45,635 nucleotides of DNA from Candidatus Niyogibacteria bacterium RIFCSPLOWO2_01_FULL_45_48 (GTDB taxonomy: Bacteria; Patescibacteriota; Minisyncoccia; HO2-45-28), in assembly GCA_001819395.1 (NCBI GenBank), contig MHMQ01000033.1, positions 1-45,635 on the forward strand, given 5' to 3'. The first letter of the stretch is position 1; each line of letters opens with the position of its first letter. Made by a program: the position numbers and the translations under genes. Shown piece by piece: positions 8,625-45,464 of the stretch. Under the pieces are notes generated by a model. That model did no database searches. It was given only the letters and a program-made list of their open reading frames with translations, and had not been told where the DNA came from.

Positions 8625-8645
8625 CCCTGGGATCGAATCCCAGGG
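8625..8645. repeat. hairpin repeat family P1, copy 1 (CCCTGGGAT-CGA-ATCCCAGGG)
   Basis: Perfect 9-bp stem with a 3-nt loop, 23 nt upstream of the Y1-transposase-like start codon. Confidence 0.9.
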
Positions 8646-8668: not shown

Positions 8669-9364
8669 ATGCCCACCTTTAAGCCACAACTGGCCGATGA
8701 TGAGATATATCATATTTATAATCGCGGAATAGATGGCAAAATCGTTTTTCCTAAAAACGAGTACTATGAAAGATTTATTCAGGGATTAGGCTTGTTTAAC
8801 ACAGCAGATCCGGTAAACATTAAGGATGTGGTCGTCAATTCCAGCAACCCTGGGATTCGATCCCAGGGAAGAGGGGGCGAAAGGCTTGTTGATGTTGGCC
8901 TATTTAATCTTAGGCCGACACACTATCATTTGTTACTCAGACAAGTTGTCCCGAATGGCATATCCCTTTTTATGCAGAAAATTGGTACTGGTTTTACCAC
9001 TTTTTATAATTTAAAAAACAAGAGATCCGGTCCTTTGTTTCAGGGAGCCTTTCGAGCAAAGTTGGTAGACAAAGACCGTTATTTAAAGCACCTTTTTGCG
9101 TATATTGCGTTAAATAGCCTTGATAATGATATGCCGGAGTGGAGAGATGGCGGTATCACCGACCGGAAAAAAGCAGAAGAACTTCTGATCAATGCCAAGT
9201 GGTCAAATTTCGGGTCGTTGTTTAAAAATGACAAAAGATTTAATGGGGTTGTCAACGAAGATTTTGTGAAGGAATTTTTTGATAGCCATAGTGAACTCAA
9301 AGAGTTCGTTTTGTCCTGGGGTGTTGCCGAGGCGGATTTAATAAAAGAAATAACTGCTGGTTAA
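8669..9364 (+). CDS. HUH/Y1 tyrosine transposase-like protein (IS200 / REP-associated RAYT-like)
   Basis: 231 aa. N-terminal IYHIYNRG, HUH motif THYHLLL, FQGAFRAK, and C-terminal Tyr motif FAYIALNS. This matches the COG1943/Y1_Tnp pattern. The gene is flanked by P1 hairpins. Confidence 0.75.
   Translation: MPTFKPQLADDEIYHIYNRGIDGKIVFPKNEYYERFIQGLGLFNTADPVNIKDVVVNSSNPGIRSQGRGGERLVDVGLFNLRPTHYHLLLRQVVPNGISLFMQKIGTGFTTFYNLKNKRSGPLFQGAFRAKLVDKDRYLKHLFAYIALNSLDNDMPEWRDGGITDRKKAEELLINAKWSNFGSLFKNDKRFNGVVNEDFVKEFFDSHSELKEFVLSWGVAEADLIKEITAG
8848..8868. repeat. hairpin repeat family P1, copy 2, inside the CDS (CCCTGGGAT-TCG-ATCCCAGGG)
   Basis: Same 9-bp stem with the loop inverted (TCG instead of CGA). 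It is read in frame as NPGIRSQG within 8669-9364. Confidence 0.9.
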
Positions 9365-9368
9365 AAAT

Positions 9369-9387
9369 CCTGGGATCGAATCCCAGG
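9369..9387. repeat. hairpin repeat family P1, copy 3 (CCTGGGAT-CGA-ATCCCAGG)
   Basis: 8-bp stem and 3-nt loop, 5 nt after the stop codon of 8669-9364. Confidence 0.85.
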
Positions 9388-9410
9388 AATCCCAATAGTT
9401 TTCGGATAAT

Positions 9411-9429
9411 CCTGGGATCGAATCCCCGG
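9411..9429. repeat. hairpin repeat family P1, copy 4 (CCTGGGAT-CGA-ATCCCCGG, one stem mismatch)
   Basis: Direct reading. It shares the 5' flank AAT with copy 3. Confidence 0.8.
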
Positions 9430-43939: not shown

Positions 43940-43956
43940 CTCAAACTTAGTTTGGG
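43940..43956. repeat. hairpin repeat family P2, copy 1 (CTCAAAC-TTA-GTTTGGG)
   Basis: 7-3-7 hairpin with one T-G position in the stem. Confidence 0.8.
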
Positions 43957-44043
43957 GACGGCTGTAACGGACATATGCGCTATTGGACAGACAACATGAC
44001 TCATTTTTATGTCCATTATAACTGTTTTATGTCTTCAATTTGA

Positions 44044-44060
44044 CCCAAACTTAGTTTGGG
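44044..44060. repeat. hairpin repeat family P2, copy 2 (CCCAAAC-TTA-GTTTGGG)
   Basis: Perfect hairpin. It sits between TTGACC (44040-44045) and TATAAT (44064-44069) upstream of the second Y1-transposase-like gene. Confidence 0.9.
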
Positions 44061-44093
44061 TAGTATAATTACTTTGTTTCATATGAAACATTT

Positions 44094-44735
44094 ATGAGAA
44101 ATCACCAATTTATTAAAGGAGAATTTTATCATGTTTATATTCATGCTATTGAGGGCAGAAATTTATTCAATAACACAGAGGATTATGAAAGATTCATCAC
44201 TACCCTTTTTGCTGCCAACGGAACCAAGTCGGTTCCAAGAATAGAAGGCTCAAACTACCTAAACTTAGTTTGGGATATAAGGGATGGCGATGTCGACGTG
44301 GGGGAAGAAATGGTAGATATTGTTGGTTTTTGTTGCAATCCTACTCACGCACACCTGGTTTTAGGCGAAAGAGAAGAAGGAAATATCTCCAGATTTATGC
44401 ACAAATCTCAAGTCAGCTATGCAAAATATTACAATATTAAACACGATCGGCGCGGCCACCTGTTTGAGAGAAACTTTAACTCCAAACACTTACAAGATAA
44501 CGAGTATTTGCTTAGCGTTTCGTGCTATGTTCATCTTAATCCAAAGGATACAAAAGAATGGTCCGGCAAAGAGTATTTATATCCTTGGTCGAGTTATCAG
44601 GATTATGCAATAAAAAACAGGTGGGGCCGTTTATTAAAAACAGACATTGTTTTGTCTCAATTTAATAATAATGATGAGTATAAACTTTTTGTTGAACAGT
44701 ATAAAGACGGTGATCTTGAAGAAGTTTCACGTTAA
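44094..44735 (+). CDS. HUH/Y1 tyrosine transposase-like protein (IS200 / RAYT-like), second divergent paralog
   Basis: 213 aa. EFYHVYIHA, HUH motif THAHLVL, GHLFERNFNSK, and Tyr motif SCYVHLNP. The gene is flanked by P2 hairpins. Confidence 0.75.
   Translation: MRNHQFIKGEFYHVYIHAIEGRNLFNNTEDYERFITTLFAANGTKSVPRIEGSNYLNLVWDIRDGDVDVGEEMVDIVGFCCNPTHAHLVLGEREEGNISRFMHKSQVSYAKYYNIKHDRRGHLFERNFNSKHLQDNEYLLSVSCYVHLNPKDTKEWSGKEYLYPWSSYQDYAIKNRWGRLLKTDIVLSQFNNNDEYKLFVEQYKDGDLEEVSR
44258..44274. repeat. hairpin repeat family P2, copy 3, inside the CDS (CCTAAAC-TTA-GTTTGGG)
   Basis: Read in frame as (Y)LNLVW(D) within 44094-44735. Confidence 0.85.
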
Positions 44736-44750
44736 ACATTTTATGACGCA

Positions 44751-44767
44751 CCTAAACTAAGTTTGGG
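44751..44767. repeat. hairpin repeat family P2, copy 4 (CCTAAAC-TAA-GTTTGGG, inverted loop)
   Basis: Located between the Y1-transposase-like stop and the yraN start. Confidence 0.85.
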
Positions 44768-44778
44768 AAAACTGGAAA

Positions 44779-45168
44779 ATGATTTCTGAAAAGAGAAAGT
44801 TGGGGAATACGGGGGAAGATTTTTGTGTGAAACATCTTGTGAAACAAGGGTATGATATTCTAGATAGAAATTATCTTAAAAAATGGGGCGAAATAGATAT
44901 GGTGGCTAAAAAAGACGGGGTTATTCATTTTGTTGAAGTTAAAACGAAAGAATTGGAAAGTTTCATGTGGAACAGTTTGGAGAATTATGATCCGGAAGAA
45001 AATGTGCATCCGTGGAAATTAAAACGGCTTTCGCGCGCGATACAGACATATTTGATAGAAAAAAATGTTGATGATGAAACCGAGTGGCAGGTTGATGTCG
45101 CGGCTGTTTTTCTTGATTTTGAGGCCAAAAAAGCTACGATTAGAATTACCGAGGATATTGGCTTGTAA
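44779..45168 (+). CDS. yraN: YraN-family (UPF0102) PD-(D/E)xK endonuclease-like protein
   Basis: 129 aa. G.TGEDFCVKHLVKQGYDILDRNY....GEIDMVAKKDGVIHFVEVKT matches the YraN pattern. Confidence 0.75.
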   Translation: MISEKRKLGNTGEDFCVKHLVKQGYDILDRNYLKKWGEIDMVAKKDGVIHFVEVKTKELESFMWNSLENYDPEENVHPWKLKRLSRAIQTYLIEKNVDDETEWQVDVAAVFLDFEAKKATIRITEDIGL

Positions 45169-45172
45169 TCTA

Positions 45173-45189
45173 CCCAAACTAAGTTTGGG
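45173..45189. repeat. hairpin repeat family P2, copy 5 (CCCAAAC-TAA-GTTTGGG, inverted loop)
   Basis: With its inward flank it forms a 20-nt inverted repeat (CCCAAACTTAGTTTGGGTAG) with copy 2. Confidence 0.9.
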
Positions 45190-45211: not shown

Positions 45212-45282
45212 CGGGGTGTAGTATACCGGTAGTACGCCTGCTTTGGGAGCAGGTAGACCGAGTTCGATTCTCGGCACCCCGA
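45212..45282 (+). tRNA. tRNA-Pro (anticodon TGG)
   Basis: Hand-folded: acceptor CGGGGTG/CACCCCG, anticodon arm CCTGC-TTTGGGA-GCAGG (G37), T-arm CCGAG-TTCGATT-CTCGG. No encoded CCA. Confidence 0.85.
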
Positions 45283-45464
45283 CACAGTTTATTTACATAA
45301 AATTAACTCTTTATTAACAGGTTGTTTTTGTTGTCCTTGCTTTGTTTTTTGGTATTGACACATTATGGTTTTTATTGTATAGACTTGCTTTTTTGCATTG
45401 CATATGGTATGGTGTGCGTACAAAGGTCGGTGTTCTTTTTTTGTCAGCTTAACTAATTACTTTT

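Follow-up and report, generated by a model that had tools for sequence, protein, structure and literature searches.

A RAYT-like nuclease gene of Patescibacteria with three private, co-evolving palindromes at its promoter, reading frame and stop codon

The window analysed here, the whole 45,635-nucleotide (nt) stretch of contig MHMQ01000033.1 (assembly GCA_001819395.1) from Candidatus Niyogibacteria bacterium RIFCSPLOWO2_01_FULL_45_48, carries a RAYT-like HUH/Y1 nuclease gene (the Y1 gene; 44094-44735, + strand) that encodes a protein of 213 amino acids (aa). A palindrome, P2 (CC[CT]AAAC-TWA-GTTTGGG), occurs five times within 43940-45189, where 0 copies are expected by chance and 100 dinucleotide-preserving shuffles gave 0 matches. 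Three copies mark out the gene itself. The first (CCCAAACTTAGTTTGGG; 44044-44060, +), a perfect 7-3-7 palindrome, lies in the spacer of a promoter-like site, TTGACC-18 nt-TATAAT (44040-44069, +), which matches 11 of 12 hexamer positions and is the best of the region; its -35 hexamer extends into the palindrome's outer arm. The second (CCTAAACTTAGTTTGGG, that is, CCTAAAC-TTA-GTTTGGG; 44258-44274, +) is within the gene and in frame, where it encodes LNLVW, residues 56-60. The third (CCTAAACTAAGTTTGGG; 44751-44767, -) has the opposite orientation and begins 16 nt past the stop codon. The remaining two copies lie further out, one upstream (CTCAAACTTAGTTTGGG, that is, CTCAAAC-TTA-GTTTGGG; 43940-43956, +) and one downstream (CCCAAACTAAGTTTGGG, perfect; 45173-45189, -). 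The loops are TTA, TTA, TTA, TAA and TAA in coordinate order; two copies are perfect and three have one mismatch. An earlier sequence-only reading of the window had listed these five copies with these loops, the in-frame LNLVW and the position of one copy between TTGACC and TATAAT, and all of this was confirmed. As described below, the locus is an example of a RAYT-fold gene with three private palindromes, at the promoter, in the reading frame and at the stop codon, that co-evolve with one another.

The assignment of the protein depends on its predicted structure. The 213-aa product reaches 24.7 bits with Pfam Y1_Tnp (threshold 23), and the product of a second, paralogous Y1 gene at 8669 gives no hit; neither meets the 80-bit cut-off of the NCBIfam model NF047646 (REP_Tyr_transpos), with 24.5 bits for the 44094 gene and 17.2 for the 8669 gene. 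The HUH motif is H85-A-H87 and the catalytic tyrosine is Y145; H85, H87, Y145 and N149 are invariant among 30-35 homologs. A fold search was needed because a family-profile search of the PDB gave only E ~0.15, to ISDra2 TnpA. For the AlphaFold2 model (35 homologs, pLDDT 91.2), the top PDB match by Foldseek is 4ER8, the E. coli RAYT bound to a hairpin of the repetitive extragenic palindrome (REP) type (E = 2.8e-5, target-normalised TM 0.67); IS608 and ISDra2 TnpA are weaker matches. The product of 44094-44735 is thus, as modelled, an HUH/Y1 nuclease with the predicted fold of E. coli TnpAREP, in line with the RAYT-like label of the sequence-only reading. Residues 55-61 sit in an extra helix (52-63, with lower pLDDT) between helix 1 and the strand that precedes the HUH motif, and this segment is missing in shorter relatives such as the 188-aa P0119. 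The family comprises 610 clusters at 50% identity (E <= 1e-30), and its named proteins and contigs almost always come from Patescibacteria lineages. In the literature searched, no paper was found that ties Patescibacteria or Parcubacteria to Y1, HUH or RAYT.

Scans of GTDB genomes and of JGI/ENA metagenomes yielded 150 loci, 55 of them non-redundant orthologs with 47-90% identity. The best GTDB-representative match to the window gene has 65% identity, and the closest relative, L071, is a 3.6-kb metagenome contig that is 90% identical. About 50 of the 55 orthologs carry three copies of a locus-specific palindrome, at -30 to -60, at nt +164 or +167, and at +614 to +697. The core shared in this clade is CCNAAAC-NNN-GTTTNGG, extended to TGA-CCNAAAC-NNN-GTTTNGG-NCA (10-3-10), with a palindrome length of 17-23 nt; no conserved motif was found in the orthologs outside the 23-nt palindrome. 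The homologous upstream copy, present in nearly all 55, is embedded in cTTGACC...-(T/A)ATAAT with a spacer of 17/18 nt, and the upstream consensus reads cTTGACCcAAACtaaGTTT.GG.CAa.aat. TTGAC is found at the hairpin in 37/48 orthologs and in 14/29 distant clades, against a background of 3.2%, and is followed in 32 by a -10-like hexamer 15-19 nt downstream (mostly 17-18). The internal copy is in frame at codons 55-61 and is kept in all but about two of the 55 orthologs. At the 3' end, the stop codon falls inside the downstream palindrome in 26/46 orthologs, and is supplied by the TGA of the foot, the TAA of CCTAAAC, a TAA loop or the TAG of GTTTAGG. Where the reading frame runs into the downstream copy, it does so in the frame of the internal copy in 20/29 cases (P ~9e-5), so that many proteins end in a second DLNLVWD-like peptide. 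The hairpin peptide was seen twice in the same protein at L004, L011, L074 and L084 (for example, internal DLNLVWD with a tail ending in DLNQVWDI before the stop), and hairpin-encoded C-terminal tails also occur in two relatives of the 8669 gene product, P0127 and P0130. A few loci have re-centred or inside-out flanking palindromes (L076:3624-3650 and flanks; upstream in L118 and L123), such as CACTTAGTGT-CTG-ACACTAAGTG against an internal CATAAAC-TTA-GTGTATG, or GCTTAGG-TAG-CCTAAGC, which suggests tandem or shifted palindromes.

The three copies of a locus resemble one another more than they resemble those of other loci. Between the internal 17-mer and the flanks of the same locus, a mean of 1.4 of 17 positions differ, compared with 3.4 for the flanks of other loci and 6-9 for a control segment of the reading frame; none of 2000 permutations gave as good a within-locus match. 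Variants have appeared together at all three sites: CCGAAAC-TWA-GTTTCGG (internal peptide DRNLVSD), CCYAAGC-...-GCTTRGG (LSLAW or LSQAW), CCYAAAT-CSG-ATTTRGG (LNPIWG), a CGA loop (LNRVW) and, at locus L111, arms in which CCT...AGG replaces TGA...TCA. Pairing is retained as the stems diverge. Internal stems are 86.5% paired, with seven of ten pairs changed on both sides (0/500 shuffles as high; 23-44% in slid controls), and pairing reaches 91.6% in the flank stems, where 66 cells are changed on both sides (0/500 shuffles as high). The compensatory changes reach the protein, as in the change of DLNLVWD to DRNLVSD, where L to R is coupled with W to S. Synonymous sites are held as well: codons 54-61 form the window of lowest third-position entropy in the reading frame (0.64 against a mean of 1.43), with Leu56 encoded by CTA in 43/45, Asn57 by AAC in 44/47 and Val59 by GTT in 43/44, and the same amino acids elsewhere in the reading frame have mixed codon usage. 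The hairpin also follows the protein. Protein distance correlates with hairpin distance (Mantel r = 0.40, 0/2000 permutations), and paralogs within the same genome differ in hairpin (L004 and L019, L008 and L017, L009 and L010). The covariation of protein and hairpin claimed by the sequence-only reading is thus borne out in 55 orthologs. That reading had also named observations that would speak against a functional link; what was found is that the association between Y1 clades and hairpins is present in other genomes, that the internal copy persists in nearly all orthologs, and that P2 does not behave as a generic terminator after unrelated genes.

Could the internal copy be a neutral passenger, an in-frame REP-like insertion that a permissive surface segment tolerates and that template switching or short-tract gene conversion homogenises with the flanks? 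Insertions of REPs in frame are known from tnpAREP and from other genes (PMC6006769), a P2 copy entered the neighbouring yraN gene in frame in L074, and the position of internal copies varies between clades, many of which have none. L020 and L120 have lost the copy and retain an intact reading frame, the hosting segment varies in length in the family of the 8669 gene, and the loop inversion described next fits template switching. Against this, about 53 of 55 orthologs, some as low as 47% in protein identity, have the copy at the same codon position, the strongest synonymous constraint of the reading frame falls there, and the protein accepts radical coupled substitutions (L to R with W to S) by which pairing is kept. 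Homogenisation across 200-480 bp from 17-23 nt of identity would, moreover, need high efficiency. We regard this explanation as unlikely. With respect to the inversion, the loop of the promoter copy is TTA in the window (44044-44060) and TAA in L071 (L071:253-269), in Y1 genes that are 87.5% identical at the DNA level; an inversion of the whole loop fits hairpin template switching.

A similar layout is found at the second Y1 gene of the window (8669-9364, +; 231 aa), which is 30% identical to the first and has its own hairpin family, P1. An upstream copy, CCCTGGGAT-CGA-ATCCCAGGG (8625-8645, +; -9.8 kcal/mol, z = -4.3), is followed by an in-frame internal copy with loop TCG (8848-8868, -) that encodes NPGIRSQG, and by two copies, 9369-9387 and 9411-9429, just past the stop codon (9368-9429, +). 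Matches to the P1 hairpin were located at 8626, 8849, 9369 and 9411. Six relatives of this gene (gene 1) with 45-79% identity were examined. Five of the six have three copies of their own lineage-specific hairpin, at about -23 to -47, +163 to +190 and +654 to +707; L153 has the flanking copies only, and the downstream copy of L151 is a P1-like variant, not the hairpin of that locus. The stems of these relatives (CTGAGGT-TAA-ACCTCAG, CAGGGAT-CGA-ATCCCTG, CAGGGGT-TCA-ACCCCTG, CATGGAT-CCG-ACCCATG, CTGGGAT-TTA-ATCTCAG) are unrelated to P2 and have the same layout; the segment that hosts the internal copy is of variable length. The two strongly diverged paralogs, each with its own hairpin, were therefore correctly recognised from the window alone. 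More distant homologs (n = 55, 25-40% identity) have a matching upstream/downstream repeat in 48/55, within one mismatch. Their loops are 3 nt long in 26/29 and the stems of matched flanks measure 6-13 bp; the longest stem, 22 bp, belongs to one hairpin inside the reading frame (L036). The conserved internal position proposed from the window holds in the families of both window paralogs but is not universal. Of the distant clades that have an internal copy, most carry it at about +135 to 175, others at ~+268 (L031, L044 and L147) or, between the HUH motif and the tyrosine, at ~+380-410 (L029, L041, L045 and L055).

Copies are rare elsewhere. P1 and P2 have no further copies in the 45.6-kb window. 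Dispersal was counted in the pooled flanks around the loci (889 kb), not in complete genomes: the 477 kb surrounding orthologs yielded about 13 copies beyond those of the units and the 412 kb surrounding distant homologs yielded 10, most of them no more than ~1.4 kb from the Y1 gene. The P2 17-mer occurs in just 1 of 2.9 million viral contigs, and a phage-borne target or a role in defence was dismissed on this count. The gene itself appears to be stationary. The window and L001 share the gene order C12-C2-C13-Y1-yraN, with neighbours 50-86% identical against 65% for Y1, and other sublineages have their own conserved synteny blocks with a neighbour divergence similar to that of Y1. A genome holds 1-3 Y1 genes, which are diverged paralogs rather than identical copies, and all near-identical pairs are in the same locus. 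An ungapped comparison had given near-identical pairs with unrelated flanks, as if by transposition; BLAST showed the same locus with indels. The Pfam domains of the neighbouring genes pointed to no functional link with Y1. From these comparisons of sequence, the hairpins belong to the gene alone and do not form a dispersed REP family, and the gene has long resided in conserved synteny.

These observations bear on whether the locus is an active or recently active element of the IS200/IS605 type, in which the flanking hairpins would be the ends of a ~0.7-kb peel-and-paste transposon and the internal copy would be incidental. The hairpins bracket promoter and reading frame exactly, the unit of ~700 bp is like that of IS200, and the Y1 fold also matches the TnpA of IS608 and ISDra2. 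At L066 a Y1 remnant was apparently deleted from hairpin to hairpin, and some strain-level indels begin beside hairpins. Such an element is nevertheless difficult to reconcile with conserved synteny in which the neighbours diverge in parallel, and with genomes that hold 1-3 diverged paralogs and near-identical pairs that all sit in one locus. The same palindrome is found at both ends, in either orientation, with no conserved motif outside it that could mark a cleavage site, and the best structural match is a RAYT and not an IS200 TnpA. A transposon is accordingly a quite unlikely description. The remnant (L066:5030-5443, in a metagenome-assembled genome of Zambryskibacteria) is without the N-terminal ~100 aa, including the HUH motif; it is truncated at the hairpin TGTCAAAGG-CGC-CCTTTGACA and its 3' end is the cognate hairpin, which looks like a hairpin-to-hairpin deletion. 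The indels, of 0.3-0.65 kb, were seen in L098 versus L015 (after +675), L093 versus L009 and L100 versus L102; one of them contains a hydrolase-like reading frame, judged from translation alone. Hairpins may thus be local hot spots of rearrangement.

The outer copies of P2 enclose a second gene, yraN (UPF0102, PD-(D/E)xK; 44779-45168, +), and are followed by a tRNA-Pro(tgg) (45212-45283, +). The yraN product matches Pfam UPF0102 at 6.6e-20 and no NCBIfam YraN model at its curated cut-off (best 88.8 versus 111 bits); both features had been named from the sequence alone, correctly. The tRNA is a syntenic neighbour, and a tRNA also follows yraN in L071 and L074. The sequence-only reading had taken a 20-nt inverted repeat to bracket a 1.15-kb unit of the Y1 gene and yraN. 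Both arms of the repeat (44044-44063 / 45170-45189) match exactly; the 3 nt by which it exceeds the 17-mer are probably a matter of chance, because they are not kept in the close relatives L071 (90% identical) or L001, and the repeat was rejected as a unit boundary. The outer pair is confined to the window, L071 (-176 and +1087) and L001 (-166 and +1054). L074 has the upstream equivalent (in the -166 to -176 range of L001, L071 and L074) and lacks the downstream one; the outer upstream copy is missing from most other orthologs. yraN itself adjoins Y1 only in the sublineage of the window, L001 and L071-L074. Since the outer copies are limited to one sublineage, the family-wide unit is the Y1 gene alone, from promoter copy to stop-codon copy. 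In L074 a P2 copy lies in frame inside yraN (L074:3854-3870; peptide NPNLVWE), read in the same frame as the copy inside Y1, and this YraN is 5 aa longer than that of the window. The enclosure of yraN is, on present sequences, a lineage-specific local spread of P2, to which the copies at 43940 and 45173 and that in the L074 yraN would all belong; hairpin copies appear to spread occasionally and to be tolerated in frame.

The position of the upstream copy raises the question of whether a hairpin is recognised at all. The 10-3-10 palindromes could be duplex sites for a symmetric dimer, of the Y1 protein or another factor, which would act as a repressor of the promoter, possibly through loops to the internal and 3' sites. 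The palindrome fills the -35/-10 spacer as a classical operator does, the orientation of the loop, or spacer, is free as for a symmetric site, and covariation that preserves the palindrome fits co-evolving half-sites. Yet the Y1/HUH family binds folded single-stranded DNA (PMC8266576), and the predicted model of the 213-aa protein has no helix-turn-helix. Between clades the arms range over 6-22 bp while the central 3 nt stay constant in length, which suits a hairpin better, and the three copies of a locus share their central triplet, whereas nothing requires the spacer of an operator to be conserved. At pair 3 of the internal copy, moreover, a T-G wobble is more frequent than any other state. 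We consider an operator of this kind quite improbable.

The same wobble could instead point to RNA, with hairpins in the mRNA that control translation, decay or termination in the manner of REPs in 3' untranslated regions. G-U-compatible pairs are common in the internal copy (35/48 at pair 3), and REPs are known to stabilise or terminate transcripts (10.64898/2026.03.23.713779). The upstream copy, however, precedes the gene's transcript, as its place between -35 and -10 implies, and in many flanking copies the sense strand contains C-A mismatches. Three identical, locus-specific sequences would also be more than a generic RNA hairpin requires. No copy is followed by a T-run or gave a terminator-like call, and the copies are confined to the gene, which led us to reject a generic terminator; an Rfam search of the region returned the tRNA only, the hairpins matching no known RNA family. 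An RNA-level role is very improbable.

Other systems share parts of this arrangement. The phiX174 gene A protein is an HUH nuclease whose nicking site lies in its own coding sequence; it is a Y2 Rep initiator of rolling-circle phage replication with a single origin and no flanking copies. Rickettsia palindromic elements (RPE) are short palindromic repeats that are likewise tolerated in frame in the surface segments of proteins. REP insertions in coding regions (PMC3733652) are comparable in that a short palindrome is tolerated in frame in a surface segment, and the L074 yraN is exactly of this type. In-frame palindromic insertions of both kinds are scattered in unrelated genes and drift once inserted, whereas the copy described here is in the gene of its presumed cognate enzyme and is matched to the flanks. 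Elements of the IS200/IS605 family (IS200, IS608, ISDra2) share a coding sequence bordered by subterminal hairpins that the Y1 transposase reads as single-stranded DNA, a unit of ~0.7 kb as in IS200 and a left-end hairpin near the promoter. The present loci differ from them in having no multicopy or mobility signature, a third, internal copy, and a protein ~60 aa longer; both ends carry the same palindrome in either orientation, whereas in the insertion sequences the left end differs from the right and guide and cleavage tetranucleotides are present.

A close parallel is the REPtron, the RAYT/TnpAREP gene with its REPs (E. coli yafM, 4ER8; PMC3479197, PMC8266576). Shared features are the HUH/Y1 fold, flanking cognate palindromes, paralog-specific palindromes, co-evolution of protein and palindrome, one to few gene copies per genome and behaviour like that of a vertically inherited housekeeping gene. 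TnpAREP binds the folded single-stranded REP strand-specifically and co-evolves with it (PMC8266576), and each tnpAREP has its own REP family (PMC6006769). In contrast to REPtrons, no dispersed REP/REPIN population was found for the present loci (~23 extra copies in 889 kb, mostly local). Their stems are perfect and short, the loop is of 3 nt, and the flanking copies coincide with the promoter spacer on the 5' side and with the stop codon on the 3' side. The protein, of 213 aa, scores 24.5 versus 80 bits on the NCBIfam RAYT model, and the hosts are Patescibacteria. The sequence-only reading knew of no such arrangement for RAYTs. That view has to be given up, as Quentin et al. 2018 (PMC6006769) describe in-frame REP insertions inside tnpAREP as the hallmark of subclass 2.4; such insertions, in tnpAREP and in other genes, are thought to be harmless in loops. 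As in subclass 2.4, a cognate palindrome lies in frame in the nuclease gene in addition to flanking copies, and the inserted segment is proposed to be peripheral in the protein (PMC6006769). The differences are that the copy here is N-terminal to the HUH motif (residues 56-60 versus 85-87), at a fixed codon and without a GT[AG]G foot, that it is retained across a deep clade with covariation and synonymous constraint, and that the hairpin family is private to the gene. The system is thus a RAYT/REPtron with an in-frame REP, of a sort already known from subclass 2.4; what distinguishes it are the private hairpins, the integration with promoter and stop codon, the deep conservation with compensatory coding changes and a new host range at the level of the phylum.

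How might such a gene work? In the reading we favour, to which we give a probability of roughly 0.55, the window gene is a member of a large Patescibacteria lineage of RAYT-like genes and forms a self-contained cassette whose three sites are recognised and acted on by its own Y1 protein. By analogy with REP/RAYT pairs and the ends of IS200/IS605 elements, the palindromes would be hairpins bound by the encoded protein, which would probably nick and rejoin them when the DNA is single-stranded in replication or transcription. The promoter copy includes the -35 box, and its occupancy or extrusion could exert negative feedback on transcription; this autoregulatory step, taken by itself, is possible and is put forward tentatively. 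The internal copy would be an ancient in-frame insertion of the same site into the added surface helix; it would be kept matched to the flanks because it stays a live substrate, either through the action of Y1 or through template switching between copies. As free single-stranded DNA, the perfect P2 copies fold with -6 to -7 kcal/mol.

Several observations weigh against this proposal. The imperfect window copies fold weakly as free single-stranded DNA, with -2.7 to -3.7 kcal/mol. The internal copy is not essential, as it is absent from about two thirds of the distant clades (being found in about one third) and has been lost in L020 and L120, where the gene has not decayed. Known TnpAREP and IS200/IS605 transposases read hairpins strand-specifically, and the orientation of the flank loops is variable here: opposite to the internal copy in 21, the same in 13-15 and other in 7-8. 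These counts do not support a fixed rule by which flanks are inverted relative to the internal copy, and a proposed link between the pair-3 mismatch and loop orientation was inconsistent on inspection by eye. The 5' GT[AG]G foot is absent, the foot consensus here being TGA...NCA; a GGGTAG in the window is on the wrong side of the hairpin and is unconserved. A duplex operator bound by a symmetric dimer would be just as likely to show palindrome-preserving covariation, and quasi-palindrome template switching can by itself, with no selection, produce compensatory stem changes and loop inversions. The present sequences are compatible with selection for pairing as well as with mutational homogenisation, and with hairpin as well as duplex recognition. 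They are likewise compatible with both explanations offered by the sequence-only reading, self-regulation and an insertion hot spot.

A further step, which we regard as rather doubtful, would be that these proteins are domesticated Y1 nucleases whose main genomic substrates are the three sites on their own gene, a self-addressed single-stranded DNA switch without a REPIN population. Such a switch may consist of autoregulation coupled to replication or transcription by hairpin capture, or of reversible nick-and-rejoin or excision between copies. If the cassette is indeed kept across Patescibacteria without a REPIN population, the reason for keeping RAYT-like genes would not be the dissemination of REPs. 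The role of RAYTs and REPs is a long-standing question, and work on it has centred on Proteobacteria with hundreds of REPs per genome. The present loci offer a stripped-down case in tiny genomes, with one nuclease and three private sites, one of them in a promoter and one in a reading frame. If the protein acts on these sites, natural covarying pairs of protein and hairpin would allow a direct and easily constructed test of Y1-hairpin recognition, of feedback through the structure of single-stranded DNA, and of how palindromes stay identical. A constraint on the nucleic acid that overrides protein sequence, as in the coupled change of L/W to R/S, matters for annotation and for analyses of evolutionary rate. 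The cassette may also serve as a minimal system for asking what "domesticated transposases" do in ultra-small bacteria.

Some further features were noted around the two genes. Between the outer and the promoter copies of P2 (window 43957-44040), a second conserved inverted repeat, GGACA...TGTCC, was located by eye at ~43991-44016; by alignment it is common to the window, L071, L001, L074 and L073. Directly 5' of the Y1 start codon, at the position of the ribosome-binding site, a palindrome, GTTTCATATGAAAC (44077-44090), is kept in the window, L071 and L001, and recalls the stem of IS200 that occludes the ribosome-binding site. The P1-type hairpins GGGATCGAATCCC and CAGGGGTTCAACCCCTG (window 8625-8645; L154, L155) closely resemble the T-arm of tRNA, GGTTCGAATCC, which may be coincidence. 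Lastly, the gene-1 relatives L154 and L156 (47-48% identity), from two genomes, lie between genes for a penicillin-binding protein transpeptidase (ftsI-like) and a Mur ligase, that is, in a cell-division/cell-wall gene cluster.

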